Source: Candidatus Bathyarchaeota archaeon (lineage in GTDB: Archaea > Thermoproteota > Bathyarchaeia > Bathyarchaeales > Bathycorpusculaceae). From it: DNA of 64,000 bases. Each line of letters begins with the position of its first letter. Positions within the stretch are counted from its first letter, which is position 1. Positions 6,746-40,636 of the stretch are shown here, in pieces. A program made the position numbers and the translations under genes. The notes under the pieces are model-generated. The model searched no databases. It saw only the letters and a program-made list of their open reading frames with translations, and was not told the origin of the DNA. The DNA lies in assembly GCA_963782525.1 (NCBI GenBank), contig CAWAKC010000003.1, forward strand, positions 192,001 through 256,000, given 5' to 3'.

Positions 6746-6836
6746 TACAGACCTCAACGACAAGAATATCAGCTTGAATTCCCTCGAAGTTATCGGGGAT
6801 CTCAGCCCCTATTTACCAGTAAAGAGATGTTGATGA

Positions 6837-6889
6837 TGGGTCGTACCGGACTTAACCCCTTCGCGATATGAGCCCCTCTTGCCCAAACT
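6837..6889 (-). repeat. Empty copy of the tRNA-Val-3'-fragment/hairpin att-like site
   Basis: TGGGTCGTACCGGACTTAACCCC-TTCG-CGATATGAGCCCCT matches the joined flanks of both complete IS copies. Confidence 0.85.
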
Positions 6890-6999
6890 TTGATTATTTT
6901 ACTTTTTTTTTTATCTAAACGTGTTATGAGAAAACCCGCAAAAAGTCAACTATGTGCTTTTGCTAAAAGTTTTGGTTTGTCCGCTCTTTATTGCTTTTT

Positions 7000-8562
7000 T
7001 TATTCAAAAGCCTCTTGGTCGAGATAGTATTTTCCGTTGACTTCTACGAACATTTTTGTTTGCTCTCTACGTCTTTCCATGATTCTTACAAATATTCGTG
7101 ACAAACCCAGTTCTTTAGCTGTCATGGCAGTTTGGGGGCTGGTGGCTCCTTTTTCTTGGAATTTTTGGATGATTTGCTGGATTTTCTCATCTCTCCAGCC
7201 TTGTGGCTCTTTTGGTTCTTGTTGGCTTGGTGGTGGAGGAGGTGGGGTTGGGGCAAGGATTGGCGCAGATTGTATTGGAACTTGCGTTTGTTGCTGTTGG
7301 GCTACAACGCGGTTTGTTTTGCCTTCATTGTCAGGGCCATTTCCACTGTTGCTTATTTTCGGTGCTTCAGAGGGTGATGCAGCCTTATGTTGACGTTTGC
7401 GCCATAAGAGAATTATGAGGATCAGTACTATAACGATAACTATGATCACTATTAGCCATTCAATCGTACCAAAACTGGGTGAGCCTGAGCTGGGGGTAGG
7501 CGAAGTAGACGTAGTTGGGATTGGTGTTGAAGAGGTTGTTGTGCTCGGTGAAGAAGACGTAGTTGGATTAACGGAAGGGGAGGTTCCTGAGCTACCTGTT
7601 ATCACTTTTGCGGTATTGCCGTCGTTGATGACAGCGAATATTTCGCCTTTGCCAAGGTCGTAAACTAAATTGTTGACGTTTATGGAGGCTTCATCAACTA
7701 TGGCATTGTTGCTTTCAGAAATAATGATAAGATGCTGGACAGGTACGATTATTTCGTCTCTAGCAGGATTGTAAGCTAGGGTCTGGGGGTCCCCTCCATA
7801 GACGCCTAGTGAAATTTCTTTTACCACCGTGTTGGTTTGATCTGATATTACGGAAACCGCTGCGGCGTTATAATCAGCGACGAAAATCTCGCCTTTACTG
7901 GAAGCATAGGCTAATCCTTCAACAGCATTTCCTCCCATATCAATGGTTGCAACCACTGTATTGTCGCTGTCTCTTATCACCGAGATACTTGGGGCGCCCG
8001 AATTGGATACGAATATTTCGTTTTTGCCAGAATCATATACTATGCCAGTAGGTGAGTCTCCTACGGTTATTGTTGCAACCACGGTGTTAGTGCTGTCTGA
8101 TATTACAGATACAGAGTGGGAATCGGCATTGCACACAAAAACTTCACCTTTAGAAGAATCATAAGCTACTCCACGGGGGTTACTTCCCACAGTCACGTTT
8201 GCGACCACACAGTTAGTGCTGTCTGAAATTATTGAAACTGTGTTGTCACCGGAATTAGCGACGAAAATCTCACCCTTTCCGGAATCATAAGCTATTTCTC
8301 GAGGATATTGCCCGACGGGTATAGTTGCAACAACAGCGTTGGTGATATCCGAAATAACAGAAACAGTGCCGTCACCAAGATTGCAAACAAAAATCTCGCC
8401 CTTTCCAGAATCATAAGCTACACCGTAAGGAAAGTGTCCCACGGTTATTGTAGCAGATACTGCAAGTGTTGATGCCGCGTTAACCAGATTGACCGCTGAC
8501 AAAATAAAAATCATAATGAATAATAAGACTAAAAGTTTCGAAACTTTAAGTTTCATAGACAT
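7000..8562 (-). CDS. YVTN/YncE-type beta-propeller surface protein with Ser/Thr linker, TM helix and cytoplasmic wHTH-like domain
   Basis: Signal peptide; repeated VG..P.GVAYDSGKGEIFV.N....VSVISD.TN.VVATI units; TM WLIVIIVIVIVLILIILLWRKR; Pro-rich linker; C-terminal AMTAKELGLSR...FVEVNGKYYL. Confidence 0.9.
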   Translation of the reverse strand: MSMKLKVSKLLVLLFIMIFILSAVNLVNAASTLAVSATITVGHFPYGVAYDSGKGEIFVCNLGDGTVSVISDITNAVVATIPVGQYPREIAYDSGKGEIFVANSGDNTVSIISDSTNCVVANVTVGSNPRGVAYDSSKGEVFVCNADSHSVSVISDSTNTVVATITVGDSPTGIVYDSGKNEIFVSNSGAPSISVIRDSDNTVVATIDMGGNAVEGLAYASSKGEIFVADYNAAAVSVISDQTNTVVKEISLGVYGGDPQTLAYNPARDEIIVPVQHLIIISESNNAIVDEASINVNNLVYDLGKGEIFAVINDGNTAKVITGSSGTSPSVNPTTSSSPSTTTSSTPIPTTSTSPTPSSGSPSFGTIEWLIVIIVIVIVLILIILLWRKRQHKAASPSEAPKISNSGNGPDNEGKTNRVVAQQQQTQVPIQSAPILAPTPPPPPPSQQEPKEPQGWRDEKIQQIIQKFQEKGATSPQTAMTAKELGLSRIFVRIMERRREQTKMFVEVNGKYYLDQEAFE

Positions 8563-8814
8563 TTCCCTTACTTTCCTTCTGAATCGGGTAGTTTCAAAAT
8601 AGATTTAAGGCTTTCGTTTGCTCGCTTGGGGTACCCGTCGATGGCATTTGGCGACGCTATTTATTTTTGTCGACGAATTCGCCAATGGGATTTTGTAGCC
8701 AACCTAGCAGTAAAAATGATTTGAGGAATCCAAAATCGAAAATTGGTTTGGGATAGATGGGATTCGTTTAAATTATTAAGCAAATCCTTATTTTTCCTCG
8801 GAAAAAGAATGAAA

Positions 8815-8838
8815 CGGGCCCGCTGGGAATCGCACCCC
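8815..8838 (-). repeat. tRNA 3'-end fragment (T-arm plus GGGCCCG-type acceptor strand), att-like
   Basis: Reverse complement GGGGTGCGATTCCCAGCGGGCCCG gives a degenerate T-loop, T-stem, CGGGCCC and discriminator G. Confidence 0.6.
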
Positions 8839-9312: not shown

Positions 9313-9325
9313 TGGTGCCGAGGGC
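9313..9325 (-). repeat. 13-bp direct repeat of the tRNA-Phe 3' end (putative att)
   Basis: TGGTGCCGAGGGC is identical to 20415-20427. Confidence 0.7.
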
Positions 9326-9407
9326 TAGCTTGACACCGTCGTTTAAACCGTCGTTACAACATTATCTAAAAAAACAGGGGCAGGTCGTACCGGACTTAAC
9401 CCCGAAA

Positions 9408-11030
9408 CAGACTGTGTGAAAAGTCCTATAGTCCACTTACCGTTAAGCTTAAAGCTAGCTTCAGAACAACTGAAAAGCCATGAGCGAACATGTAAACGGA
9501 ACTCACAGAGACCAAACAGTGCTGTTTCCAGACACCATCGACAAATATGTTGACAAAGAAAATCCCGTCAGGTTCATTGACGCATTCGTTGAAAGCCTCA
9601 ACTTGGAAAAGTTGGGGTTCAAACACTCAAGCCTGGCCGACACTGGAAGACCATCTTACAATCCTTCAGACCTTCTCAAGCTCTATGTTTATGGCTACCT
9701 CAACCAGGTAAGATCCAGCAGGAAACTGGAGAAAGAATGCTACCGCAACGTCGAAGTCATGTGGCTCATGAAAAAGCTGTCTCCAGACTTCAAAACCATC
9801 GCAGACTTCAGAAAAAACAACGTAGACTGCATCAAAGGAGTATTCAAAGAATTCGTTTACCTCTGCAGGAGCTTGGACCTTTACGGTGCGCAACTTGTAG
9901 CGATTGATGGAACCAAATTTAGGGCTGTCAACTCAAAAAGCAACAACCTCAACGAGAAAACCGTTGCGTTGAGGCTTAAGCAGACAGAGGAAAAGATAGC
10001 ACAATACCTCAACGAATTAGATTCTAATGATGCCAACGATTCAGAGGACGATGATAATGCACCTGCTGATGAGCTTAGGGAAAAAATAGGCCAGCTTGAA
10101 GAGAAGAGGCAGCAATATGAGCAAATTCGAGAGCAGATGAAGGCTACAGGCCAAAGGGAGGTTTCACTTGTGGATCCAGACAGCCGTTTAATGCGAGTTG
10201 ATAGTCAACGGCTTGAAGTTGGCTACAATATTCAAACTTCCGTTGATGCAAAACAGCACCTCATTGTCGATTATGACGTGATAAATATCTCCACTGATCA
10301 CCATCAGCTGGTTAAGGACGCTTTAGCAGCGAAGGAAACCTTAGGTGTGGATAGGCTAGCTGTTTTGAGTGACAAGGGTTTCTACGTCGAGAAAGATGTT
10401 GCAGGTTGTGAGGATAATAATATACCCTTTTCATGCCTATACCTGGGGCTTTGAATCCATACAAGAGCGTTGGCATTCCTGAGCCTGAATTTTACTCTGA
10501 CAAATTTGTTTATGATGCCGCTAAGGACGTGTATGTTTGTCCTGTGGGAAATGAGATGCCTTTTTGGAAGCGTAGTAACCGCGGCAAAGGTTTTGATGGT
10601 AGGCTGTATAGGTCGAGGTGTTGTGATTCTTGTTTGGTGAGAGGTAGGTGTACTAGGAATAAGCGTGGACGGTATATGTTCAGGGGTGAATATGATGGGG
10701 CGGTTGATCGTTTAAGGGAGCGGTTGAAGGGTTCGGAGGGCAAAAAGATGCTTCGTTTGAGGCGGTTGTTGGCGGAGCATCCGTTTGGGACGATGAAGCG
10801 GGCTTTTAATCAGGGTTATGTGCTTTTGAAGGGTCTTAGGAAAGTGAGAGGAGAGGTTGGTTTCACTATGTTGGCTTACAATATGAGAAGGGCTATCAAT
10901 ATTCTTGGAGTTGGAATGCTAATAGGTTTGATTAAAGCGTAAGGAAAAAGAAAGTAAGTGCAGGTAATCGAAGACAAGAGATTAGGCGCCAGATATCTCA
11001 GGCTTTAGCGGTGAGTTTTAACACAGTCTG
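9408..11030 (+). mobile_element. IS1182-family insertion sequence, copy 1 (1623 bp)
   Basis: TIRs CAGACTGTGTGAAAAGTC / CAGACTGTGTTAAAACTC; 4-bp TSD GAAA at 9404-9407 and 11031-11034. Confidence 0.93.
9480..10942 (+). CDS. IS1182-family DDE transposase, split by a frameshift at ~10425
   Basis: GRPSYNP, SSRKLE, PDFKTIADFR, AIDGTK, DPDSRLM, GYNIQ, SDKGF; second ORF has the Cys cluster and EHPFGTMK. Confidence 0.92.
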
Positions 11031-11748
11031 GAAAGGGTATGAGTCCCTTCACCTAAATTCTTTGAATTAGGCTATTTTGACGAGTTGAACTATGATATGA
11101 AGCCTCGCTCTCCCTAATCAATCAGAGAACAAGTCCGCCGAGTCGCAGACCTGAACAGGTTCAAGTCCAAGTGATGCCTCTTCAGAAACTAACCTTCTTT
11201 TCCTAAGTAGGGGCATTTCGAGTCAGCATCTAATTTTTTCTTAAAGTAATCAAAGGGCCAAGCCTAAGCGGTGTGGTTAGAAAGAGTGTTTGATGAAAAC
11301 TCCTTTGTATAGGCCGAGCTGGCGTTTTCTATGTATTCGTTGATTTCTTGTAGTAGGCTGGGTGTGTTTTGTTGGAGTGGATTTGGGCTTGTTGTTGGTC
11401 TTGGAAGTGCGTGGTTAGGGTTTGGCGTGCGTTATCGCTGGAGTGGTGTAACCTTATTACTCATATGTCCTTTTCCAAACATTAATCGAACACTGATTTC
11501 AACAGTAAGAACTCCCCTTGTATATGCAGTTGCTACATCCAGGATTAGTAAAATATCTACTCTTACTCAAAAAGAATCCATCAAACAACTAATATACGCC
11601 CAAGTTACATTTCAGGTTTTGCAAGCAAAACACTTGATTGACAGAAAATAGGTATGGTACTGCAAAGCGATTGATTGATGGGTTACTCAAAGTGCTCTTA
11701 GAAATAAAATGGATTGAAGCACACTAAAATTTGGCGTTTCCTTTTGTG

Positions 11749-19702: not shown

Positions 19703-20414
19703 CTAATAAGCACAATCAACATTTCAGTTTTTCCTAAGCAACAAAGAATCATCACAAGCATTCCAAGTAATCCAGATGGTTTTTTTCTGATAAGGGCAAG
19801 TTACCTAGACGACTCGTTATGCTAATCATTGAACAGTTGGTGAATGGAGGAAAATATTGCGCTTGTAGCACATTACAACAAGAAAAAAGATTTGCTTACT
19901 CTGATTATTGTGGCAGTTCTTGGTTTGGCAAAGGTTTCTTCTTTGTCAGGTCCTGTTGTGCCTTAGTTAAGTCTTTGAAGCCGTAGGTTCCAACTGGCGA
20001 CCAACCTGCTTCCGGCATAACCCCTGGCACTAACATGATTGTGTTTGTTTGCGATTGCTGACTTAACACGCAGAGCAAAAAACCAAAAACGTACCAAGAG
20101 GCAGGAGTATGAGTTGAAGTATATTGCCTACGCTTTTTGAAATCGCAAGGCAACTCGTAGATTCTATTCCCATTTGCCGTTTGTTTGCTTAAACTGCATC
20201 TGAACCACACGGCAATCCTCACACCAAATCCGCTACATCTTCAAAACAGATTCGCCCTGGTACGCCGCGCTTTTTTTGCCCTGGTGGCAAGTACAAGGGA
20301 GTTGAAAACTGTGTGTTTGATCCTTTAATTTGAACGGTTAAAAGCGAGCGCTAAGCGCACATAATATCGTAATTTATGCCCAATATTGCAAAATAACCTC
20401 AAATTAAGGTTATT

Positions 20415-25889: not shown

Positions 25890-25976
25890 ACCTTCACGCT
25901 CATTTTGAATAATTGGTTTCCAATTATTTTGGCTGCTCAAAGCTTAAAAATGTATTAAAAAAAGAAAAGGAAGGGG

Positions 25977-27116: not shown

Positions 27117-27181
27117 ACATCTTTTCTTTTTTTTGTATCAAGTGAGAAGCTTAGTGAAATTTGTTGGCTTTTTTGTTTTAG

Positions 27182-27988: not shown

Positions 27989-28992
27989 CCACCTGTTGTT
28001 TGCTTGCGTTCCACTACATTCAACGTTTTTCCTGTAAGCTTTAGGAAGACTTCATCAAGAGTGGGAGCTGAAAGGTTGAGTTGTTCCACATTGATTCCAG
28101 CTCCATCCAAAGCTCTTACTACCTGCGTGACCAATGCGGAACCATTCTTAGTCATTATTGTTAAGCCGTTTTCAGCAGCTAACCCGTCTCCACATTTACC
28201 CACTGCTTCGATTCCTTGCAATTTTGCCATCGACTCCTTGGCTTTTTGGCAGCCTTCAAGATCATCTGCTTTAAAGCGAAGCGTGATCTTATCTGCTCCA
28301 ACTTGAGCCTTGAGTTCTGCGGGTGTCCCTTCAGCTACTATCTTACCTTGGTCGACTATGCATAATCGGTTAGCTAACCGATCTGCCTCTTCCATGTACT
28401 GTGTCGTAAGGAAAATTGTCATACCTTCTCGATTTAGTTTAACTATGTATTCCCAGATGTCTTGTCTACTCTGAGGATCTAACCCTGTTGTCGGTTCATC
28501 TAAGAACAGAACTTTTGGATCTGAGACCAAGGATGAGGCTAAGTCCAGTCGTTTTCTCATTCCCCCCGAAAACGTTTTCAATCGTCGATCTGCAGCTTCA
28601 GCAAGACGGATAGTTTGCAGAAGCTCCTTTACCTTGGTTTCTGCTTTTTCCTTTGGTATATGGTGAAAGCTGCATTGGAGCATAAGGTTCTCTCGTGCCG
28701 TAAGATCGTCATCTACTCCTACTTCCTGAGAGGAATAACCTATTATTCGTCTAACTTTTACCTGATCAGCGTCAACGTCTAATCCGTCGATTGTGGCTTT
28801 TCCAGAGGTTTTTTCCAGCAATGTTGTGAGAATTTTAATGGTTGTGCTTTTGCCAGCCCCATTTGGGCCCAAGAAACCGAAAATCTCTCCTTCTTTAACG
28901 GTAAATGATATGCCGTCTACAGCAATTACGTTTTTTCCGTAAGTCTTATGCAGATTATCAACTATTACAATATCTTTCACGCTAAAAGCCAC
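27967..28992 (-). CDS. ABC exporter ATP-binding protein (DrrA-like)
   Basis: GPNGAGKST, FSGGM, LFLDEPTTGLDP, LTTQYMEEAD, C-terminal PTLDEVFLKLTG. Confidence 0.95.
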   Translation of the reverse strand: MAFSVKDIVIVDNLHKTYGKNVIAVDGISFTVKEGEIFGFLGPNGAGKSTTIKILTTLLEKTSGKATIDGLDVDADQVKVRRIIGYSSQEVGVDDDLTARENLMLQCSFHHIPKEKAETKVKELLQTIRLAEAADRRLKTFSGGMRKRLDLASSLVSDPKVLFLDEPTTGLDPQSRQDIWEYIVKLNREGMTIFLTTQYMEEADRLANRLCIVDQGKIVAEGTPAELKAQVGADKITLRFKADDLEGCQKAKESMAKLQGIEAVGKCGDGLAAENGLTIMTKNGSALVTQVVRALDGAGINVEQLNLSAPTLDEVFLKLTGKTLNVVERKQTTGGWGRRRR

Positions 28993-29035
28993 CGTTAGAC
29001 TGAATAATTAAAAAAAATAAGGTATTTTTACCTTA

Positions 29036-29452
29036 CTACTTGGGCATTAAAACTTTGTCGATCACATGGATAACGCCGTTGTCTGTAGCAATGTCTGCTT
29101 TAACTATTTCGGCGTCGTTTATCTTCACATTCTTGTGCATATGCCACTTAGATGCGTCGACTTTTAGATCTTGACCTTGTAGCGTAGTTAGTTTTTGATG
29201 TTGTACTACATCGCTTGCCGGAACGTTTCCAGCCACGACATGGTATGTTAGAACAGCCGTCAACTTTGGAATGTCTTTCAATAGACCATCAACTGTGCCC
29301 ATAGGCAATTTTGCAAATGCTTCGTCATTTGGTGCAAAAACCGTAAAAGGACCTGTGCCTTTTAATGTGTCAACTAAATTTGCTGCTGTTACAGCCGCTA
29401 CAAGAGTTTTGAATGTACCTGCCGCTACTGCGGTATCAACTATATCTGCCAT
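29036..29452 (-). CDS. Fasciclin (FAS1) domain protein
   Basis: [34 protein letters not shown]. Confidence 0.96.
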
Positions 29453-29746
29453 AAAAATTCATCTCTTACTGTTTATAGGCTATACCACTAGTTAAGGATT
29501 CATTAAGTTGTGGACTCACACTAACACTTTTTGCGTCTTTTTTGATTTATGGGGAAAAAACTGCAGAGGAACTTGGCGTTAATACATTCCCGAGACTGGG
29601 GTAGAACTAGTAAAAGTTGAGCCTGAGAAAAATCGAATTAATCGATATGTCTTTAAAAAAAACAGGCTTCAGCCCACGGCAAACACTCAACGTGAACTAA
29701 TTTCTTTAAGCATATTAATCGGAGTTTAAAATAAGCTGTATTTCAA

Positions 29747-30025
29747 CTATTTGTTTGCATCCAGCTTTCCAAACCAACGCGAACGCCAACTTAAAACTTC
29801 CATCATTTGGCGTTCCAATTCCTCGTATCGATTCTTGTACTCTTCGTCTAGCCATTTGTGGGGTAGTTCATATTCAAACTCAATTGATGGAAAATCGTTA
29901 TTTGCTTCGTGCAAAACGTCCCGAATATACTCAGGAGGAACAATCTTGCTGGGTAAGTAGGGATCGACAATTGTTTTCTCTAATTTTCCTTTGATCATTT
30001 TTGTTTTCTCTATATGGAATGTCAT
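29747..30025 (-). CDS. Hypothetical protein
   Basis: 92 aa; shares EA..(D/E)FP...W..(R/K)W pattern with 38469-38639. Confidence 0.6.
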   Translation of the reverse strand: MTFHIEKTKMIKGKLEKTIVDPYLPSKIVPPEYIRDVLHEANNDFPSIEFEYELPHKWLDEEYKNRYEELERQMMEVLSWRSRWFGKLDANK

Positions 30026-30184
30026 CCGAATAATCTAATATTTCTTATGTTTATCCACCTCGCTTTGAGGAGAAATTGGCAAGTTTTTTTTTAATTTCTA
30101 CCGTTTCAACGTAAAAATTGGCAAGTCACTAACAGTTCCGCAATCAAACCTGAGCTGCTGACTCTCAATAGTTTTAGTGTTAAA

Positions 30185-30673
30185 TTAAGGCGACTTGAGT
30201 CCTATTTTTTCTATCACTTCATCAAGCTTTATTATTAGAATCGGTTTGTCTGCAGAAAAATCGCTCCAGTCGGAACCCATGGAAAAGCCATGAGCCAACA
30301 GAAAGTTTTTTGAAATTTTCTGTTTGCCCACTTCAGCCATCGTTTCTATAGCCAGTTTTCTTTCCTCGCGGTCCTCCACCAATTGAAGTTTTCCAGTAAG
30401 CACAACAAACTCATATTCGCTAAAATTTGGAGTGTACTGTTCTATTTCTACGCAAACTGGGGTTTCTTGCTTGAAAAAACTCATCTTCTTCCCGTAATCT
30501 GTGAAATGAAAGTAAAGAATACCATTAACATAAGCGTATTGAAAAGGAGCAATGTAAGGCTTCAAGTCACCTTTGAATGCTATTCGACAAAGGAATTGCC
30601 CTCTAATTAGTTCTTCGATCTCGTTTTCTTTCATTTTTGGCAGCTCTACCTTCGTCATTTCTAATACCCGCAA
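30185..30673 (-). CDS. Pyridoxamine 5'-phosphate oxidase (NimA-like) flavin-binding protein
   Basis: LCRIAF...PYIAP...LYFH...GKKM...VCVEIE. Confidence 0.88.
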   Translation of the reverse strand: MRVLEMTKVELPKMKENEIEELIRGQFLCRIAFKGDLKPYIAPFQYAYVNGILYFHFTDYGKKMSFFKQETPVCVEIEQYTPNFSEYEFVVLTGKLQLVEDREERKLAIETMAEVGKQKISKNFLLAHGFSMGSDWSDFSADKPILIIKLDEVIEKIGLKSP

Positions 30674-30799
30674 TTACTAAATTATCCCTTCTCCTTTTTT
30701 AGAGTACTCATCATCCAGGCAAGACTATTCTGTGGTGACTACGAAAATGGAGAGCTTTAAGACAGATGATCAATTAAGTCTAAGGAAGAAGGATGAGTA

Positions 30800-31732
30800 A
30801 TGAGAATAGGTTATCCTTGTATCAATAGAACTATTGACTGCACCGCAAACAGCACTTTTCGGCTAAAATCTTACTCTGAAACCCGACTTAAGGAGACAGT
30901 GAAAAATAACTTAGACTGCTTGATAAGAATCTTGCATTTCAATCTTGAGCATGGTTTATTCTTTTTTAGAATTTCCTCAGACTTGGTCCCTTTTGCATCT
31001 CATCCGATAAATAAGTTCGACTGGCAAGGGCATTTCCAAGAAGATTTTGAAGAAATTGGCGAGTTCATTACCAAAAATAGAATGCGAATCTCAATGCATC
31101 CAGACCAGTTTACCCTAATTAACTCAATTAAAGAGGATATTTTCGAAAGAAGCAAAAATGAACTCAAATATCACGCCCAAATACTTGACTTATTGAAACT
31201 TGACACTTCGGCAAAAATTCAAATACATGTTGGCGGAGCTTACGGAGACAAAAAGAAGAGCATGGAGAGATTTGTAACAAGATTCAATGAGCTTGATGGT
31301 TCAATAATTCGGCGCTTGGTAATTGAGAATGATGATAAATTGTTTGATTTGAAGAACTGCCTTGAGATAAATGCACAAATCCAAATTCCAATTCTATTTG
31401 ATGTCTTTCATCATAAACTCAACAATTCCGTAAACCAGACGATAGAAGAATCTTTCAAACTTACTACAAAGACATGGACTGAAAAAAGCGATGGAATCCC
31501 AATGGTCGACTACAGCTCTCAAGAACCTAATGGATTGCCAAGGCAACATTCCGAGGCAATTAAACTAGAGGATTTTGAACTGTTATTGAAACAAACTGAA
31601 ACCTTCGATTTCGATATAATGCTGGAGATCAAAGATAAAGAAAAAAGTGCAACCAAAGCAATTGAATTGGCAATCACAGATTGGCGAGTTCAGAATTTTT
31701 TGAATAATAACTCTGACCCTTTAGTCGCCTAA
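30800..31732 (+). CDS. uvsE: UV DNA damage endonuclease UvsE (UVDE)
   Basis: MRIGYPC, FRISSDLVPFASHP, SMHPDQF, IHVGG, IENDD, FDVFHH, MLEIKDKE. Confidence 0.96.
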   Translation: MRIGYPCINRTIDCTANSTFRLKSYSETRLKETVKNNLDCLIRILHFNLEHGLFFFRISSDLVPFASHPINKFDWQGHFQEDFEEIGEFITKNRMRISMHPDQFTLINSIKEDIFERSKNELKYHAQILDLLKLDTSAKIQIHVGGAYGDKKKSMERFVTRFNELDGSIIRRLVIENDDKLFDLKNCLEINAQIQIPILFDVFHHKLNNSVNQTIEESFKLTTKTWTEKSDGIPMVDYSSQEPNGLPRQHSEAIKLEDFELLLKQTETFDFDIMLEIKDKEKSATKAIELAITDWRVQNFLNNNSDPLVA

Positions 31733-31767
31733 GTTTTTTTCTCTATCATGAGGCATATTTACGTTTC

Positions 31768-32752
31768 TTATTTCCAGTAGTTTTTTCCATCAACCTCTGA
31801 AAAGACAGTTTCAAGTTCTGCAAGCTGTTCTGGGTAAGGTTCTAGCAAAGTCTGGCTCGATAAATATTCTTGATTGAACCTAACAATCCAAGCCTTCAAA
31901 ACACTCATGCATGCACTCAGAGGCAATCTTCCTGCCCTGTACTTGTCAACTGAAGACAGGAAGAAGAGCTTTTCATCCTTAGAAAGTTGATGAGAGAAAT
32001 AACCCATTATCTTTGACATGACGTTTATGTTTGCGCCGGCACTCGGAGTACGTGCTAATGCATTGTACAATTGCGTTTCATAGTTCTTGATTATTTCATC
32101 AAAAGCTTTGTGCTCTTGGTTTGCCGCCAACTTCCCCAAGATCCTAAGCTCCGTCTGATTGTAAGCTGTAAATAAGTACTTGTTATCAGCTTGAAATTTC
32201 ACTAGATCTCTAACTTTCCCGGATTTTTTTACTTCTCTAAAACTAGCTAAAGTAAATAGTTTCGTGAGAAAATGCTCCCTTATCCTCGGATTAAGCAGGC
32301 GGCGCTCATCTTCAATTGCCAAATTCGGAAATTTCTGGAGAACTGCTCCTCCAAAGAAGCCAGGGGCTTTCTCTATTGATGAGACTTTTTCGATGCTTGG
32401 ATACACTTTTACGTTTTTGAAACCACTACTCGGAGACGCACTCTTGAGGATAAAACCATCAACTGCATCCAAAGAATCCAAGAAATAATCTGAGAACTTT
32501 GTCATTTTATCGGTGAAGTCAAAACCGGTAGCTGGTTGCAGGAGTTTTTTTTCTCCGTTTACTAATACTATTCTGATAGGGTCGCGGGGGTACGCCAAGT
32601 CCTATTTCAACTTCTGGACAAACTGGAACAAAATTTACGTACGGCTTAAGTTTCTCAACGAATTCGCTAGCTATTATTTGCCCGTTCCATCTAACGGGTT
32701 CGAAAGTGATGCATTTGGAAACTACAACAACAGGTTTGGGGAATTCCCTCAT
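31768..32752 (-). CDS. DUF523 + DUF1722 (YbgA) protein, frameshift in C-run at ~32588
   Basis: VVVSKC..VRWNG, VCPEVEIGLGVP(R), GFILKSASPSSG, IMGYFS, QEYLSSQTLLEPYP. Confidence 0.9.
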
Positions 32753-32938
32753 TTAGCGCCCTCGTTTTGCTCCGAGTGATAATTGAAAAAATGAGAGGTT
32801 GCGTGTTTCATAAGTCTTCTTATCGCTGGCAGAATAGGCTTTTCAGAAATAAAATTAGTCTTTCCAAACTCTTCTAAGACTTTGCAGTCTTCGATTGCCT
32901 TATATATTTAGAGCAAAGAATAAGTTTCGGAGATTCTG

Positions 32939-33724
32939 ATGACAAATAATAATTCAAGCGTTCTAAGATATGCGAACATACTATTTTTTGCCTTAACAAT
33001 AATAGTTAACAGTTTGGCTGGAAGCTCAACAATTATTGGTGGCAGGAATACTGCTCAAATCTCCGATGCCAACCCGACTCTAATAACTCCTGCTGGCTAC
33101 GTATTCTCCATATGGGGAATCATCTACATTCTGCTTGGAGCTTTTGTAGTTTACCAAGCATTGCCCAAACAACAGGGAAAAGACTACCAGAAAAGAATCG
33201 GTTGGCTCTTTGTTCTAAGCAGCATAATAAATATTGCTTGGATTTTCGTCTGGCAATTTGAATATCTTGCTCTATCGGTTTTGCTTATCTTCGCGTTACT
33301 CTTAACGTTGATTGCCATTTACATTCGCATTGGTGTTGGAAAGTCTAAAGCCCAGTTGAGTGAGAAACTTGCAGTTCACCTTCCTTTCAGCGTCTACTTA
33401 GGCTGGATAACTATTGCTTCAATAGCTGATATTGCCGCAACCTTGGTTTCTTACAATTGGAATGGTTTTGGTTTAAGCCCAGAGACATGGGCTATTGTGG
33501 TTGTTGCAGTGGCTCTGATAATTACAATTCTAATGCTGGCTATTCGAAAAGATGTGGCTTATTCACTTGTAGTCATTTGGGCTTTGGTTGGCATAGGAGT
33601 AAGTCATAGCGTCAATCAATCAGTTGTTACATTAACCGAAATAGGTGCTGCAATTGTTGCTATTGCCATAATTGTAACTATTTCTTTATCTTTGCTAAGA
33701 CATAAGAAAACAACAGCATCTTAA
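32939..33724 (+). CDS. TspO/MBR-like tryptophan-rich sensory membrane protein
   Basis: ITPAGYVFSIWGIIY, NIAWIFVWQ, PFSVYLGWITIA. Confidence 0.85.
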   Translation: MTNNNSSVLRYANILFFALTIIVNSLAGSSTIIGGRNTAQISDANPTLITPAGYVFSIWGIIYILLGAFVVYQALPKQQGKDYQKRIGWLFVLSSIINIAWIFVWQFEYLALSVLLIFALLLTLIAIYIRIGVGKSKAQLSEKLAVHLPFSVYLGWITIASIADIAATLVSYNWNGFGLSPETWAIVVVAVALIITILMLAIRKDVAYSLVVIWALVGIGVSHSVNQSVVTLTEIGAAIVAIAIIVTISLSLLRHKKTTAS

Positions 33725-33754
33725 TCAGTTATCTTGGGGTGTTTCAGTAAACTT

Positions 33755-34324
33755 ATGGTACAAACCGTAAATTATGAAATCATAAGAAAAATAGACAACG
33801 TTGAGATTCGACGCTATCCTAGAATCGTAATTGCTAAAGTAGCCAACCATGAATCAGATAGTTTTGGCCTTCTTTTTCGATTCATTTCAGGAAATAACAA
33901 AGAAAAAGAAAAAGTCAAAATGACTACTCCCGTGGTCTCACAGGAACCTTCAAAAGAAATTAAGATGACGTCACCTGTACTTTCAGATTTCTCAAATGAA
34001 GGCTACATGGCTTTTGTTATGCCTTCTGAATTTAGTTTTGATACAACCCCATTTCCCTTAGATAGCAGGGTCAAAATAGAAGAGTTGCCTCCAAGGTCAG
34101 TAGCTGTTTTGCGTTTCTCCGGAAGTTGGTCTGAGACTCACTTTGAAGAAAAAACCAAAGAGCTACTACAAGAGATAGCTAACGCAAAAGTGAAAACGAA
34201 AGGCCATGTCTTTACGATGCTTTATAATCCACCGTTCACTCCAAGTTTTCTGCGAAGAAACGAAGTAGCCGTAGAAGTAGAACTCTCGCCTTCAAAATCA
34301 AGCAGGTCAACAAAGCATATTTAG
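33755..34324 (+). CDS. SOUL heme-binding protein (second paralog)
   Basis: VEIRRYP, FRFISGNN, MTTPV/MTSPV, YNPPFTPSFLRRNEV. Confidence 0.92.
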   Translation: MVQTVNYEIIRKIDNVEIRRYPRIVIAKVANHESDSFGLLFRFISGNNKEKEKVKMTTPVVSQEPSKEIKMTSPVLSDFSNEGYMAFVMPSEFSFDTTPFPLDSRVKIEELPPRSVAVLRFSGSWSETHFEEKTKELLQEIANAKVKTKGHVFTMLYNPPFTPSFLRRNEVAVEVELSPSKSSRSTKHI

Positions 34325-34344
34325 ATTGATTCCTGTCCTTGAAG

Positions 34345-35081
34345 CTACGTCAGTTTTTGTAATAATTCTACTGTAGCGTTTAACGTTTGGCTTTGTTGGG
34401 CTTCTCTTGTTATTGTAGCCGGATTGTCTCCTGATTGATCGCCGTAATATCCGAATTGCGCATGGTTTCCTCCCGCTATTTCAACATAAACTGTTATTGG
34501 GGGAAGCATCTCCCGAGAATTCAGTATTTGGGAAGTACTTACCAATCCATCGTTACTACCGTGAACAGTAGTTACTAACAGATCGTATTTTGACAGGTTA
34601 TTTCCAGATGCAGGATATGCCGCCCAGAGTACAAGTCCTTGTATTTTCGATGGGTTTTGGTAAGCGAACTGGGCAGCCATGGTTCCTCCAAGAGAGTGTC
34701 CGCCAATTGCCCAAGAGGTAATCTCCGGATGAGATGCGATTACATCGTTTGCCGCATTCGCTCCCAGGACTGCTAAATTAAGAGGCATAGGCACGATAAC
34801 TGCCAAGTATCCTTCATTAGCTATTGCATGAGCAAGCGGTGCATATGAACGGTAATCTACCCTTCCACCGGGATAAATAATCAAGCCTGTGGTGTAATTG
34901 GTGGTTGTGGGTTTAAAAGTCAACCATTGACCGCTTATCACTGTGACGTTTGAATCGGATTGTAATGCGTTGATGGCTTGCTTCATTGGCGACGGGGGGT
35001 TTCAGCCCACACAATAAATCCTGTGAAAATCACTAAGGCAACAAGCAGAGCAATTATCAGTATTTTGTAGCGTCTACGCAA
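34345..35081 (-). CDS. Alpha/beta hydrolase with N-terminal anchor, frameshift in C-run at ~34996
   Basis: YPGGRV, GGHSLGG, GSNDGL, GGNHAQFG. Confidence 0.88.
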
Positions 35082-35280
35082 TTACATCTTCTCCTATTTA
35101 TTAAGCTGCTTTCTAAGTCTAAAAGGCTTCTTTTTGTGACAGACGATGCAATACCTTGATTTGAAGTCTATTTACTTTTTGTAGATAGGTTAGCAGTGCG
35201 AATAATCCTGCCAGTCCATTCGGAATCGATATTCCTAAATAGAAAAAATTGCTAAATAAGAAAACATAGGGTGCAGTGTT

Positions 35281-35787
35281 ATGAGTTCTGAATCAAGAGA
35301 TCAAACATTCGTTAAGAAACAAATGCCAACCAAATTTTTGGAGGAGCGCATTATTGAGTTTCTTAAGAAACAAAACATGTGCGTTCTTGCTACTTGTGGC
35401 GATGGGCTTCCTAGGGCTACTCCGATTGAGTATCACTCCAAAGGAATCACTATTTACTTCGTGGGTGAACCAGGCGAAAAAATAAAGAACATAACGGATA
35501 ATCCCAACGTTAGCATAGGTATTTTTCTCCCGTACACAGGTTGGGATAGCGCCAAGGGTGCCCAAATAACTGGAAGAGCAAAAATTATCTCCAGACAAGA
35601 CCATGATGGCCTCAGAGAAGGCTTAGAAGCATACCAATGGGAAAAAACAGCGAAGCAGTTGAACATAAAAGAGTTTCCCAAAACAGTAGAGCTAGTAAAA
35701 GTTGATCCTGAAAAAATAGAGTACGTTGACATTTCGTTGAAGAAAATGGGCTATAGCCCACGGCAAACTCTCGTATTGCTTAACTAA
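35281..35787 (+). CDS. Pyridoxamine 5'-phosphate oxidase family protein
   Basis: CVLAT..DGLPRATP, KIKNI..NPNVS, QITGRA. Confidence 0.88.
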   Translation: MSSESRDQTFVKKQMPTKFLEERIIEFLKKQNMCVLATCGDGLPRATPIEYHSKGITIYFVGEPGEKIKNITDNPNVSIGIFLPYTGWDSAKGAQITGRAKIISRQDHDGLREGLEAYQWEKTAKQLNIKEFPKTVELVKVDPEKIEYVDISLKKMGYSPRQTLVLLN

Positions 35788-35801
35788 CAAAGACCTGTAG
35801 G

Positions 35802-36650
35802 TTAGGCGGAGGGTAAGTTAAGCATGGTAGTCGTTTCATTCCATAATCGCTTTTGGAGTGACTCATCATAAGATGTTAGGCAAGTAGCGCTTTCTTTTTT
35901 CTTAGCAAAGCATTTTCCAGTGACATCCCTTACCTCGTTGGATGAGGCTAAATAGACTGATGTTTCTGCCCCTTTCTTTGCATTAATCTGCATTGGGCGA
36001 ACCATCTTGAACATGATAGAAGACCGTAAGCTTCCGCTGTTTTTTCCAAGATTAGTAGCTACAAAACCCGGCATCAAAACATTTGCTGTAACTCCACTTC
36101 CCACCAACCGCCTAGCCAACTCATAAGTAAACATCATAAGCATCAACTTCGCATTTGAATAAACTTGCATTCCCTTGTAATCTTTCACACTTTGCAGGTC
36201 ATCAAAATTAACTTTACCATTCTTCGCTAACCCAGAGCTTACATTAATTATTCTAGAAGGCGCACTGACCTTTAGTAAGTCTAGCAACTTATTCGTCAAA
36301 AGGAACGGCGCCAAATAATCTACCGCAAATGTACGTTCAAAATCCTCAGGCGTAACCTCACGTTTACTGAATTCTCCGCCAGCATTGTTAACCAATACCT
36401 CCAATCGACTGTATTTTTTCTTAAATTCCCTTGAAAAATCTCTTATCGACGCCATCGATGACATATCACATAACATCAGACTAACAGATTTATTACCGGT
36501 CTTTTCGATTATTTCAGCTAATGCTTTTTCTCCCTTCTCTTGATTACGAACAACCATTACAACCGTGGCGCCCATTTCTGCTAAAGCAAAAGCGGTCTCT
36601 TTGCCTATCCCCGAGTTACTGCCAGTAACAATACAAATCTTACCAGACAT
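35802..36650 (-). CDS. Short-chain dehydrogenase/reductase (retinol-dehydrogenase-like subgroup)
   Basis: TGSNSGIGKETA, NNAG, RIINVSS, YSNAK, GAETSVYLA. Confidence 0.9.
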   Translation of the reverse strand: MSGKICIVTGSNSGIGKETAFALAEMGATVVMVVRNQEKGEKALAEIIEKTGNKSVSLMLCDMSSMASIRDFSREFKKKYSRLEVLVNNAGGEFSKREVTPEDFERTFAVDYLAPFLLTNKLLDLLKVSAPSRIINVSSGLAKNGKVNFDDLQSVKDYKGMQVYSNAKLMLMMFTYELARRLVGSGVTANVLMPGFVATNLGKNSGSLRSSIMFKMVRPMQINAKKGAETSVYLASSNEVRDVTGKCFAKKKESATCLTSYDESLQKRLWNETTTMLNLPSA

Positions 36651-36919
36651 CGCCAAATTGCATCATCACTACTCAATATATACGGAACCAAATAAAAAAC
36701 TGCTCATAGGTAACTCTTTGGCAATTCTATGCCTCGAAGCTCGAGTTGTACCTGCAGAATCGTGTAAATCAAAATTTTTTCTATGTAAGTTTCTCTTGAA
36801 GCTTCACATTCAAAACCATTGAGCATCCAATGCTCCAGATCATCGCCGAATTTCACGTCTTAGACGTCTAAATTTGATAAATATTAACAAGTGGCAAATA
36901 CTCAGAGGCTCAGGTTACA

Positions 36920-37060
36920 GTGCGAAAACACCCAGTAAGCATAGCCTTTTCCAATCGCGTATTAGAGAAAATAGATAAAGAAGCCTCAAAACAAAAAAGA
37001 TCCAGAAGCGAATATGTAGAACTGCACTTGAGAGTATGTTTTTTAGACTACCAGCGATAG
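36920..37060 (+). CDS. Small ribbon-helix-helix (CopG-like) protein (46 aa, not in ORF track)
   Basis: MRKHPVSIAFSNRVLEKIDKEASKQKRSRSEYVELHL... Confidence 0.65.
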   Translation: MRKHPVSIAFSNRVLEKIDKEASKQKRSRSEYVELHLRVCFLDYQR

Positions 37061-37200
37061 AGAACGAAATAAAAATGAAACCAATGTAAGCGCGCGCTGC
37101 AACGCTTATAGGTTTTTTGCAGAATTCGAGAAATTTGAAGCTTGCAGATGCAAAAACATCTGTTTAATAGACACGGTGTAAGCAAGATTTTAGGGATTTT

Positions 37201-37410
37201 ATGAGCAACAAAGAAAAGAAGAGAAAAGCCGACTCCACAATAAGCAAGGATCCTAAAGAAAAAGACAAGACTGCTATAAGCGAAAGAGAGCGATTCAAAG
37301 GCAAGTTGAACAAGGCAGAAAACAAAGCTCAAGAAACTATTATTAAAGCAAGAAGTAAGAACCAAGGTCACGAAGCCGTTTCCGACCAGAAGTCACACGA
37401 ATACCACTAA
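37201..37410 (+). CDS. Small highly charged hypothetical protein
   Basis: 69 aa, Lys/Glu-rich, TATA-like TTTAATAG upstream. Confidence 0.55.
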   Translation: MSNKEKKRKADSTISKDPKEKDKTAISERERFKGKLNKAENKAQETIIKARSKNQGHEAVSDQKSHEYH

Positions 37411-37664
37411 ACGCAAACATTCACTGAACCGTTTATGCTACTTGCCGTTGACAATACTAAGCTCCTAATCAATTTTTATTCTCCTTCAGTTTTCCCCATG
37501 ATTCCGTGACAAAGCTTAGATAGCCCAATGCCAGTATCTTTTCTCCGCAAAATTTTGGGACTTTACCTATTCAGACCTACAATTCGGCTGAGTTATCATA
37601 ATCATACAATTTGATAAAAAAAATCAAAATCGTCAGGTTTGAGCTAAGGGGCTCGTACCCAATT

Positions 37665-38298
37665 CAGACTGTGTAAAAACTTAGATCACGACGTTATTCC
37701 ACTCGAAGCTTATACTCCCAGGCAACGCCTGCTTAATCCTTTTCTGGCCTTTTTCACGACTTCAACAAAGCAATCAGTAATCCCACTCCAAGGATGTTGA
37801 TAGCTCTCCTCATGTTGTAAGCTAACATGGTGAACCCAACTTCTCCTTTAACCTTCCGAAGTCCCTTCAAAAGAAGATAACCCTGATTAAACGCCCTCTT
37901 CATCGTCCCAAACGGATGCTCCACCAACATCCGTCGCAAACGCAAGTTCCTTTTCCCTTCAGAACTCTCCAACCTTGCCCTGAGCCGCTCAACCGAACCC
38001 TCATACTCCGACCTATAAATTATCCTTCCACGCTTGTTCCTCGTGCACCTCTCCCTCAAAGAGCAGGAAAAGCAAGACCTAGTTCTATAGAGCCTACCGC
38101 CTACATCCTTACCTTTAGAGCTGCGCTTCCAAAACCTCATTTCCCATCCAGCAGGACAAGTATAAACATCTCTGACAGAATCGTACGCAAACAAGTCAGT
38201 GTAAAACTCAGGCTCTGGCACACCAAAACGCATATGCGGATTCACAACAGCGGGAATCGGCATAAACACCCTCAAGCCTTCAGCCTCGCAGCAGGCAA
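37665..38298 (-). mobile_element. Truncated, diverged IS1182-family element (right end only)
   Basis: TIR CAGACTGTGTAAAAAC at 37665; ORF homologous to the transposase C-terminus (EHPFGTMKRAFNQGY); 5' part absent. Confidence 0.88.
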
Positions 38299-38468
38299 AC
38301 CAGTGGAACACTACTGCTTTAACGGTAAAGCCGTCTAAAACGAGAGCGACCTGTGAATTTTCTATTTCTTTTTTTAACTTTTTCTGCTAGAAGCAAAAAA
38401 TAGGTGCTTTGCAACAGTAAGGATAATTCTTAATTATTCAATAATGCAATTTACCCGATGGGATTTAC

Positions 38469-38639
38469 ATGGTTAACGAGTTTAGAAAACGTATTGACCT
38501 TTTGGGGCTCGATGAGGAAAATAAGAAGAAAGTCATCGAGTTAATCGAGGAAGCAGGAAGGGAATTTCCATGTTTAGCATGTCCTTCAAAAGATACCTGC
38601 GAAAACTTCAAGTGGTACATAAAATGGCTTAGCAATTAG
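38469..38639 (+). CDS. Small CxxC-x5-C protein (56 aa, not in ORF track)
   Basis: MVNEFRKRIDLLGLDEENKKKVIELIEEAGREFPCLACPSKDTCENFKWYIKWLSN. Confidence 0.7.
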   Translation: MVNEFRKRIDLLGLDEENKKKVIELIEEAGREFPCLACPSKDTCENFKWYIKWLSN

Positions 38640-38983
38640 CCACAACCTTAGCGGAGGCTTTAGTCGGAAAGTTTTTAGCCGTTCAAATTAAAGAGAAATC
38701 ATCGTAGTTTTCAACTCCTTTGTACGTGCCACCAGGGCAAAAAGCGCGGGGTATCAGGGCACATTAACCATAGATAGAGAGTAAATGTTAATTGGGAATG
38801 ATTTTTACTGGTAAATTGGGGCTAGTACCCCCACTCAGCGCCTAGAGTAAAAAATCAGAAGTTCAAGTGTTAAGAAAAGTTTTGAACCATTTTGGGTATG
38901 GGGACGGGCGCCTTCAAACTTGGTCAAAATTTGCAAAGATTAGTCTTATTCAATGAGTTTGAGTAAGGGACCCATACCGTGTA

Positions 38984-40606
38984 CAGACTGTGTTAAAACT
39001 CACCGCTAAAGCCTGAGATATCTGGCGCCTAATCTCTTGTCTTCGATTACCTGCACTTACTTTCTTTTTCCTTACGCTTTAATCAAACCTATTAGCATTC
39101 CAACTCCAAGAATATTGATAGCCCTTCTCATATTGTAAGCCAACATAGTGAAACCAACCTCTCCTCTCACTTTCCTAAGACCCTTCAAAAGCACATAACC
39201 CTGATTAAAAGCCCGCTTCATCGTCCCAAACGGATGCTCCGCCAACAACCGCCTCAAACGAAGCATCTTTTTGCCCTCCGAACCCTTCAACCGCTCCCTT
39301 AAACGATCAACCGCCCCATCATATTCACCCCTGAACATATACCGTCCACGCTTATTCCTAGTACACCTACCTCTCACCAAACAAGAATCACAACACCTCG
39401 ACCTATACAGCCTACCATCAAAACCTTTGCCGCGGTTACTACGCTTCCAAAAAGGCATCTCATTTCCCACAGGACAAACATACACGTCCTTAGCGGCATC
39501 ATAAACAAATTTGTCAGAGTAAAATTCAGGCTCAGGAATGCCAACGCTCTTGTATGGATTCAAAGCCCCAGGTATAGGCATGAAAAGGGTATATTATTAT
39601 CCTCACAACCTGCAACATCTTTCTCGACGTAGAAACCCTTGTCACTCAAAACAGCTAGCCTATCCACACCTAAGGTTTCCTTCGCTGCTAAAGCGTCCTT
39701 AACCAGCTGATGGTGATCAGTGGAGATATTTATCACGTCATAATCGACAATGAGGTGCTGTTTTGCATCAACGGAAGTTTGAATATTGTAGCCAACTTCA
39801 AGCCGTTGACTATCAACTCGCATTAAACGGCTGTCTGGATCCACAAGTGAAACCTCCCTTTGGCCTGTAGCCTTCATCTGCTCTCGAATTTGCTCATATT
39901 GCTGCCTCTTCTCTTCAAGCTGGCCTATTTTTTCCCTAAGCTCATCAGCAGGTGCATTATCATCGTCCTCTGAATCGTTGGCATCATTAGAATCTAATTC
40001 GTTGAGGTATTGTGCTATCTTTTCCTCTGTCTGCTTAAGCCTCAACGCAACGGTTTTCTCGTTGAGGTTGTTGCTTTTTGAGTTGACAGCCCTAAATTTG
40101 GTTCCATCAATCGCTACAAGTTGCGCACCGTAAAGGTCCAAGCTCCTGCAGAGGTAAACGAATTCTTTGAATACTCCTTTGATGCAGTCTACGTTGTTTT
40201 TTCTGAAGTCTGCGATGGTTTTGAAGTCTGGAGACAGCTTTTTCATGAGCCACATGACTTCGACGTTGCGGTAGCATTCTTTCTCCAGTTTCCTGCTGGA
40301 TCTTACCTGGTTGAGGTAGCCATAAACATAGAGCTTGAGAAGGTCTGAAGGATTGTAAGATGGTCTTCCAGTGTCGGCCAGGCTTGAGTGTTTGAACCCC
40401 AACTTTTCCAAGTTGAGGCTTTCAACGAATGCGTCAATGAACCTGACGGGATTTTCTTTGTCAACATATTTGTCGATGGTGTCTGGAAACAGCACTGTTT
40501 GGTCTCTGTGAGTTCCGTTTACATGTTCGCTCATGGCTTTTCAGTTGTTCTGAAGCTAGCTTTAAGCTTAACGGTAAGTGGACTATAGGACTTTTCACAC
40601 AGTCTG
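38984..40606 (-). mobile_element. IS1182-family insertion sequence, copy 2 (1623 bp, inverted relative to copy 1)
   Basis: Same length, TIRs and translated ORFs as copy 1; flanks TGTA/TGTC (3 of 4 TSD match). Confidence 0.93.
39072..40534 (-). CDS. IS1182-family transposase with the same frameshift as copy 1
   Basis: 324-aa and 169-aa ORFs identical to those at 9480-10942. Confidence 0.92.
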
Positions 40607-40616
40607 TGTCGGGGGT

Positions 40617-40636
40617 AAGTCCGGTACGGCCCACCA
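40617..40636 (+). repeat. Direct repeat of the tRNA-Val 3' end (putative attR)
   Basis: AAGTCCGGTACGGCCCACCA; 16 of 17 nt match 23931-23947, followed by CCA. Confidence 0.85.

Follow-up and report, generated by a model that had tools for sequence, protein, structure and literature searches.

An archaeal IS1182-family insertion sequence occupies the centre of dyad-symmetric sites that are probably island junctions at tRNA 3' ends

Introduction

The IS1182 insertion-sequence (IS) family includes IS1272 and TnSha1 of staphylococci, which target inverted-repeat or hairpin sites repeatedly and in both orientations (PMC4923244; PMC5678879). A review cited in PMC4923244 attributes palindromic targets to some IS1182 members, and this preference, which the first-pass annotation of the present locus had mentioned, is a known trait. 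IS1272 reportedly cuts within the stem, deletes part of the hairpin, makes no target duplication and has no primary-sequence preference (PMC4923244; PMC5678879). A relative of these elements occurs in two copies in a stretch of 64,000 nucleotides from a Candidatus Bathyarchaeota archaeon, which is called the window and corresponds to positions 192001-256000 of contig 3 (C3) of genome G000. The window encodes TBP, CDC48, a Vps4-like ATPase and a DNA ligase of the ATP-dependent type, which mark the organism as an archaeon. Palindrome targeting by some IS1182 members is already known, and the archaeal variant is what is new; no IS1182 element of Bathyarchaeota appeared in the literature found, which consists mostly of ecology papers and does not allow prior publication to be judged.

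Islands at tRNA genes, with a regenerated tRNA, a displaced tRNA fragment and partial tRNAs inside, occur in bacteria and archaea (PMC4383910). Tycheposons of Prochlorococcus have the same layout (10.1101/2020.12.28.424599), and islands of both kinds are defined by integrases that persist at least as fragments. The archaeal element inserts at the centres of dyads that are probably island-side junctions at tRNA 3' ends.

The element and its target unit

By its sequence, the repeated element is an IS1182-family insertion sequence with a DDE transposase, and its 1623 bp fall inside the family range of about 1.3-1.95 kb. The two copies and their target-site duplications are the following (window positions):

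9408-11030, plus strand: IS1182-family element, copy 1, 1623 bp, with ends CAGACTGTGTGAAAA and CAGACTGTGTTAAAA
38984-40606, minus strand: IS1182-family element, copy 2, same sequence as copy 1
9404-9407: target-site duplication GAAA, left of copy 1
11031-11034: target-site duplication GAAA, right of copy 1
38980-38983: target-site duplication of copy 2, TACA on the IS strand
40607-40610: target-site duplication of copy 2, GACA on the IS strand, 1 nt off its partner TACA

The copies lie in inverted orientation and are identical at 1618/1618 bases over the query compared. They have terminal inverted repeats of 15 nt, CAGACTGTGTGAAAA and CAGACTGTGTTAAAA matching at 14/15 positions, and a target-site duplication of 4 bp. 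An inversion between the two inverted copies was considered and is rejected, because GAAA/GAAA and GACA/TACA (1 mismatch) pair best as found and a swap of partners worsens both.

In both copies the transposase is broken into open reading frames (ORFs) of 324 aa and 169 aa, and both copies, when aligned with five intact relatives, show the loss of 1 nt near 10427. Both ORFs match the Pfam models DUF772 and DDE_Tnp_1_6. Against NF033551, the IS1182 family model with a curated cut-off of 270 bits, they score 255.6 bits (model 2-335) and 112.5 bits (model 352-486), while an intact transposase of 487 aa from the relative G029 scores 384.4 bits. The window copies have no uninterrupted transposase ORF, and the open frames of relatives are 489-499 aa long; the window copies are frameshifted IS1182 members, not non-members. 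A further copy, on contig 5 (C5), carries an open transposase frame of 497 aa and has 75% nucleotide identity to the window element over the full-length alignment (78% in the best local BLAST piece). Two remnants are also present in the window:

6615-6763, plus strand: decayed 5' remnant of a related IS1182-family element, with 77% identity over 131 nt (6615-6745) to the contig-5 copy
37665-38311, minus strand: 3' remnant of a diverged IS1182-family element, with a DDE_Tnp_1_6 ORF at 37757-38311

Positions 6696-6744 of the 5' remnant are 82% identical to 9478-9526 in copy 1, which agrees with the transposase remnant that the first-pass annotation had noted near 6698. The 37665 remnant terminates with ...ACACAGTCTG, followed by AATT and by GGGTACGAGCCCCT (37660-37647).

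Excision of each IS restores one and the same unit, which is composed of arm 1, (G)GTCGTACCGGACTTAACCCC, four variable bases and arm 2, SGGTATGAGYCCCT. The rebuilt unit is seen for copy 1, copy 2 and the contig-5 copy, and the 37665 remnant shows arm 2 only. The parts of the units in the window are:

6834-6877: whole empty unit, GGGTCGTACCGGACTTAACCCC-TTCG-CGATATGAGCCCCT at 6837-6877
6834-6859, minus strand: arm 1 of the empty unit, a tRNA-Val-like 3' fragment, minus strand GGGGTTAAGTCCGGTACGACCCATCA
6860-6863: spacer TTCG of the empty unit, the 4 nt whose position the IS copies take in other units
6864-6877, plus strand: arm 2 of the empty unit, CGATATGAGCCCCT
9382-9403, minus strand: arm 1 of the copy 1 target, a tRNA-Val-like fragment
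11035-11048, plus strand: arm 2 of the copy 1 target, GGGTATGAGTCCCT
38966-38979, minus strand: arm 2 of the copy 2 target, CGGTATGGGTCCCT
40611-40636, plus strand: arm 1 of the copy 2 target, GGGGGTAAGTCCGGTACGGCCCACCA, read as the displaced native tRNA-Val(CAC) 3' end with CCA and as the right attachment site (attR)
37647-37664, minus strand: further unit, arm 2 GGGTACGAGCCCCT (37660-37647) and spacer AATT

The sequences that the first-pass annotation had quoted for the empty site, copy 1, copy 2 and the 37665 element are all present at these places. Arm 1 of copy 2 is also delimited as 40611-40632, and the native downstream flank begins after 40636. This arm (40611-40636) and the tRNA-Val(CAC) gene at 23874-23947 have 14 nt in common, TCCGGTACGGCCCA, so the earlier statement that links the left half of the unit to tRNA-Val holds. 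The arms of the copy 1 and copy 2 units differ at 5/36 positions, and the contig-5 copy sits in its unit in the opposite orientation. Since the IS interiors are identical while the arms differ, the mobile DNA ends at the IS inverted repeat and excludes the unit. The unit is a pre-existing target, widespread without the IS, and is not part of it.

Two non-coding features accompany the units:

6795-6823, plus strand: GGGG-N7-CCCC hairpin and palindrome ATTTACCAGTAAA
38804-38965, minus strand: conserved module, non-coding, that flanks the unit on the side of the island and ends in the GGGG-N7-CCCC / ATTTACCAGTAAA motif (38804-38832)

Positions 6795-6823 and 38804-38832, which are 83% complementary, had been taken for copies of the right arm alone. 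They are instead a conserved motif distinct from the arm, in which GGGG-N7-CCCC precedes the 12-bp palindrome TTTACYRGTAAA; this motif accompanies units here and in relatives and is also found at about 15 nt from a unit on contig 5 and at C3:190333. The module region has 90% identity over 182 nt to contig 5, 88501-88681, and about 70 nt adjoining the unit on the island side are kept in most of 31 empty units aligned from relatives. Rfam models at gathering thresholds detect only the two tRNAs in the window, so no known RNA family accounts for the unit or the module.

Target choice across the genus

Relatives of the IS were gathered from 61 genomes, and both ends were located for 12 complete copies of the clade. 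A 4-nt direct repeat flanks all 12 (perfect in 10), which bears out the claim that the insertion position is fixed at the 4-nt centre although the 4-mer itself varies. In 10/12 copies the two sides of the 4-nt spacer pair at 7 or more of 12 flanking positions, while only 1.6% of 200,000 random positions in this genome reach this score, so the pattern is not due to chance; the flanks of other IS copies, which the first-pass annotation had proposed to inspect, have the dyad at these 10 of 12 sites. Insertions of this IS clade fall at the midpoint of an imperfect dyad, about 12 + 4 + 12 bp long and typically ...CCC-NNNN-GGG.... The dyad is not carried along when the IS moves, and the IS inserts in either orientation (6:6 relative to the tRNA-like arm, as derived by hand), always cutting round the same 4 nt with a 4-bp stagger.

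Searches of 120 genomes of the genus gave 74 matches to the empty Val-type unit in 38 genomes and 27 matches to arm 1 followed by exactly 4 nt and the IS end in 17 genomes; both reversed-pattern controls gave 0 matches. The 4-nt spacing was fixed in advance in the junction pattern, and when it was left free, in the subset of sequence examined, the gap was 4 nt in 7/7 arm-1 and 7/7 arm-2 junctions.

Homologous sites are empty in relatives. The junction unit occupied by copy 2 is empty in G001 and G023, and the composite in which copy 1 sits (the unit, about 62 nt and a tRNA-Phe 3' fragment) is found with an empty unit in five places in G089, G103, G135 and G029 (loci L071, L074, L080 and L082). 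A unit that travels with the IS, named beforehand as the result that would overturn the reading of the unit as a target, is thus not what is seen.

A second IS1182-like family is present in this genome outside the window, with six identical 1676-bp copies (C1:378532, C3:306452, C9:122077, C10:84793, C11:12090 and C11:110654), ends GAGACTGTGTGAAAAGTCT and a transposase 49% identical to that of the window element. The 4-bp duplications are perfect in 5/6 copies, and 4/6 copies lie at the centre of another palindrome, GTCAA-N4-TTGAC, which recurs at several loci. With the same geometry in this second family, insertion at the centre of a dyad looks like a general property of these IS1182 relatives.

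The tRNA-Val island and the origin of the units

The unit of copy 2 lies at the far end of a region that begins at a tRNA gene:

20415-20491, minus strand: tRNA-Phe(GAA), in relatives the divergent neighbour of tRNA-Val(CAC)
23874-23947, plus strand: tRNA-Val(CAC), 74 nt, CCA not encoded, read as the left attachment site (attL) of the island
23948-40610: 16.6-kb insertion compared with six relatives, with accessory genes and no integrase

The best-matching loci of 11 relatives were examined, and the site is unoccupied in six of them (G010, G084, G027, G085, G079 and G103), where tRNA-Phe and a 77-nt tRNA-Val(CAC) with CCA are about 230-350 bp apart and the flank is in the same locus. In G010, which was read out, the CCA of tRNA-Val abuts the DNA that follows 40636 here, with 93% identity over 486 nt. 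Because tRNA-Val stands beside this DNA in the six relatives, we infer that 23948-40610 is an inserted island of 16.6 kb and 40611-40636 the displaced tRNA-Val(CAC) end. At its far end the insert is closed by a displaced tRNA 3' fragment in direct orientation, with native flank after it, as in an attachment (att) site. A tRNA without CCA, 16.6 kb of DNA and then the displaced 3' end with native flank are what integration at a tRNA 3' end classically leaves behind.

The cargo differs among relatives that have the same ends. The island here encodes ferredoxin, SOUL, heliorhodopsin, ABC transporter, UvdE, TspO and other proteins. In G023 (L044) the same attL and attR ends enclose 13.8 kb of different genes (Hsp90-like, TPR, Hsp70, GrpE and AAA proteins), and in G001 (L043) a urease cluster, accompanied by genes for a urea transporter and an aquaporin, lies beside the same junction. 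The 28 kb between the two IS copies are not one cargo; they contain tRNA-Phe, tRNA-Val, TBP, CDC48 and the Vps4-like ATPase.

Similar sites resemble the ends of other tRNAs. Related IS copies in other genomes stand in analogous dyads, and the arm on the tRNA side matches a tRNA of the present genome, namely the last 26 nt of tRNA-Ala(CGC) with 10 nt of its downstream flank, the last 16 nt of tRNA-Pro(GGG) or the end of tRNA-Arg(TCT). For every unit type, the tRNA-like block has the 4-nt centre at its 5' edge, at the start of the T-stem, and the opposite arm is a mirror of the T-arm. Where units are neighbours on one contig, at distances of 0.5 to 14 kb, 12/12 pairs have direct orientation, and in the two arrays examined the segments between units carry ABC transporters, an amidase, a TIR effector, radical-SAM enzymes and regulators.

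The tRNA-Phe side of the locus contains a comparable fragment:

9313-9357, minus strand: tRNA-Phe 3' fragment and about 33 nt of conserved sequence, 25 nt from an IS-occupied unit

Its first 13 nt (9313-9325) are the reverse complement of GCCCTCGGCACCA, and 9313-9357 has 98% identity over 46 nt to C3:190243-190288, tRNA-Phe tails being located at 9313-9325 and C3:190245. These copies suggest tandem insertions at tRNA-Phe too. As tRNA-Phe and tRNA-Val are only about 230-350 bp apart in the six unoccupied relatives, the 3.4-kb gap between them here has also received an insertion.

Further observations at these loci

In the tRNA-Val island, heliorhodopsin (25980-26714), UvdE (30800-31729), a DUF1722/2-thiouracil desulfurase protein, TspO and two SOUL proteins are encoded, and this set looks light- and UV-related. 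The gap between tRNA-Phe and tRNA-Val is filled by a 907-aa ORF (20805-23525, plus strand) with a weak PQQ_2 match. Both 13-nt tRNA-Phe tails, which lie about 11 kb apart downstream of tRNA-Phe, are fused to the same 33 nt, in which AACGACGG occurs twice; the DNA between them holds CDC48, TBP and the Vps4-like ATPase, an odd cargo for a mobile element.

A repeat of about 90-130 nt, with copies 82-95% identical, is found at 20254-20343, just downstream of tRNA-Phe, and at 38673-38800, in the tRNA-Val island beside the unit module, and also at C3:191584-191713 and C11:44952-45043; in the window, Rfam at gathering thresholds assigns it to no family. The empty unit of the window is adjoined by a 520-aa NHL-repeat beta-propeller ORF (7003-8562, minus strand) with five periodic DNA repeats of 126 nt.

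On contig 5 (C5:86500-86600, L028) about 100 nt separate an empty Ala-type unit, GTGGTTTGAACCC-AATT-GGGTTCAAATCCCGCCCAGTCCA, from the Val-type unit that the IS occupies, and a stranded IS end with a half-unit of its own comes before the empty unit. This cluster, a small graveyard of nested junctions, is located on the strand of tRNA-Ala(CGC), 14 kb downstream of that gene. Contig 7 begins (C7:1-36) within a unit of the tRNA-Pro(GGG) type, where AGACCCAGCGGCCTCACCA precedes the flank; the corresponding site in G023 carries an IS of this clade, and the assembly break may hide another IS copy.

Proposed explanation

The explanation that we favour, with fair though not full confidence, is the one given in the Introduction, in which the dyads used by the IS are, judging from comparative genomics, island-side junctions of DNA integrated at tRNA 3' ends. 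One arm would be the part of the tRNA 3' end from the T-arm to the acceptor and the other arm the island DNA that mirrors it. The units at 6834-6877 and 9382/11048 would be copies of the same junction module in neighbouring insertions on the tRNA-Phe side, where repeated integrations may have left the other units. A dimeric transposase could read the two half-sites, which it probably recognises as a symmetric double-stranded site and not as a stable hairpin. Insertion of the IS would part the island-side arm and the conserved 70-nt module from the tRNA-side arm, and the junction would then presumably no longer work as a recombination site. The IS might in this way gain a safe haven and block excision of the cargo, as the first-pass annotation supposed. 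The earlier proposal that the IS sits in attachment sites stands in part: the unit behaves as an att junction, as the unoccupied tRNA-Val of relatives indicates, and no integrase was found in the islands and arrays examined.

Several results weigh against this explanation, and the first concern the recombinase. The model PF00589 gives 8 hits in this genome, none of them in the window, and no integrase in the islands of 10 relatives scanned genome-wide. The tyrosine integrase linked to tRNA-Val that the first-pass annotation had proposed to look for is found neither in the window nor adjoining tRNA-Val nor in the islands and arrays of relatives examined. Pfam scans, in which mostly shorter overlapping frames were dropped and ORFs under 100-130 aa were not called, detected no recombinase domain in 41 of the 77 listed window ORFs, in 56 ORFs comprising 50/90 from five loci (including the tRNA-Val islands of G023 and G001) and six window ORFs, in 47/59 ORFs round five other IS-occupied units, in 57/75 ORFs within 1.5 kb of 30 empty units, and in 41/55 ORFs of two unit arrays. 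As no integrase was found, site-specific integration is deduced from its footprint only. The dyad centre, moreover, falls on the 5' edge of the tRNA-shared block or just beyond it, and the core of a classical tyrosine recombinase is expected inside that block.

Other adverse points concern the target and the transposase. Two of the 12 sites are poor palindromes (5/12 and 2/12 pairs). Five of the 12 belong to a single unit type and the genomes are related, so these numbers do not count independent events. In single-strand folding of four empty units, three are no more stable than shuffled sequences (z = 0.66, -0.02 and -0.98) and one is (-2.5); the target is therefore termed a dyad-symmetric site and not a proven hairpin, and the "hairpin loop" may be a wrong picture of it. 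Finally, as the same frameshift is present in both window copies, their own transposase is probably inactive. They may have moved with help from the intact transposase of contig 5, or have been homogenised by gene conversion.

Two candidate integrases were set aside. One, on contig 17 of G107 together with two units, is 13.5 kb away and directly beside tRNA-His, and belongs to another element. The other was a split integrase of the type of the Sulfolobus spindle-shaped viruses (SSV), with the att site inside the gene; 560 nt separate the diverged unit at C3:67935 from the C-terminal fragment of an integrase, and no frame runs through this unit. Low-depth Logan contigs from four runs over 38700-40900 contain no joint across the IS and no circle junction, and are uninformative either way on empty alleles and excision.

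Alternative explanations

An extension of the favoured explanation, which we put forward tentatively and hold to be clearly the less probable, takes the units as working recombination sites of an integrase-poor, cassette-like system. The 70-nt module, the 12-4-12 dyad and the TTTACYRGTAAA palindrome would bound exchangeable accessory segments, which would be stacked at the tRNA-Phe/tRNA-Val pair across the genus and moved by a recombinase acting in trans, and the IS1182 lineage would have specialised on the crossover site and could freeze cassettes. A reading of the units as integron attC sites was examined, given their direct arrays with cargo in between, and rejected, the dyad being only about 28-31 nt long with no integrase nearby. 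Sites of the attC type have R''/R' core sites RYYYAAC/GTTRRRY, L boxes and 55-141 nt, and occur with an IntI gene or in attC clusters. ACTTAAC/GTTAAGT is present in some copies of the unit, and many have GCTTACC/GGTAAGC instead.

It is rather unlikely that the units are a dispersed, tRNA-derived non-coding repeat, similar to repetitive extragenic palindromic (REP) sequences or miniature inverted-repeat transposable elements, which spreads by itself and has nothing to do with integration, the IS just preferring its palindrome. Such a repeat would account for genomes with up to five empty copies and no integrase nearby, for the gene-less segments of about 190 nt (contig 5) and 536 nt (G107) between two units, and for the Val-type units that also lie about 62 nt from tRNA-Phe fragments. 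It does not agree with the unit at the tRNA-Val locus, which is placed exactly at the distal end of an insertion of 14-17 kb with native flank next to it, nor with neighbouring units that are always direct and enclose kilobases of variable cargo; other unit types, furthermore, match other tRNA 3' ends together with their native flanks.

An unspecific transposase, whose random insertions survive only in neutral junction scars, is very improbable. Junction scars are presumably neutral and the IS copies here disrupt no gene, but intergenic DNA offers far more neutral positions, the same 4 nt are used in 12/12 complete copies, in 27 arm-IS junctions with the gap fixed and in 7/7 on each side with the gap free, and the second IS1182-like family has the same geometry on another palindrome.

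Hardly any credence is left for a flanking unit that belongs to the IS and travels along with it, its true ends being further out, for although an IS or a remnant of one adjoins 4/5 clear units in this genome, the copies are identical inside the IS while the arms differ, the contig-5 copy is inverted relative to its unit, the arm at 40611-40636 runs on into the native tRNA-Val flank, and the 74 empty units in 38/120 genomes, with homologous empty sites among them, already refute it.

Significance and comparison with known systems

These sites are a natural data set on the target choice of an IS1182-family DDE transposase, in which the 4-nt centre is fixed, both orientations occur and occupied and empty sites number in the dozens; such target choice has so far been described mainly for staphylococcal IS1272, which behaves differently. 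They present one mobile element that specialises on the junctions of another in an uncultured archaeal genus. The tRNA-Phe/tRNA-Val pair is a hot spot where unrelated cargo lies between the same conserved ends in relatives, namely genes for heliorhodopsin and UV repair here, for Hsp70 and GrpE in G023 and for urease in G001, and with these sites the exchange of islands without a resident integrase becomes a testable question.

Islander-type islands and tycheposons share with the present islands the regenerated tRNA, the displaced 3' fragment, the partial tRNAs inside and the variable cargo. Unlike them, the islands and arrays examined here have no integrase found in or beside them, their junctions carry a conserved 70-nt module and a 12-4-12 dyad, and the same Val-type module also stands beside tRNA-Phe junctions. 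Cis-mobilisable elements of bacteria are flanked by att sites, have no recombination genes, accrete beside integrative and conjugative elements (ICEs), on which they depend. As in that concept, tandem segments lie here between direct att-like repeats without a recombinase of their own, whereas cis-mobilisable elements rely on an ICE helper and no helper element was identified here.

The IS1111-attC group and the group IIC-attC introns are similar in that a small element lands on the symmetric site of another system, the integron attC site. IS1397-type insertion in the loops of REP sequences and bacterial interspersed mosaic elements is a further parallel, with a palindromic repeat as landing pad. 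The machineries differ from the one described here, since those systems use RNA-guided DEDD transposases, group II intron ribonucleoproteins and IS3-family transposases, respectively, and IS1111-attC elements insert in one orientation, whereas the archaeal clade is divided 6:6.

IS1272 and TnSha1 have a transposase of the same family, palindromic targets and insertion in both orientations in common with the archaeal IS. Unlike IS1272 as reported, the archaeal IS cuts the dyad at its centre, makes a clean 4-bp duplication and removes none of the target, and it has a strong sequence preference for CCC-N4-GGG with T-arm-like arms, in a host that is an archaeon.

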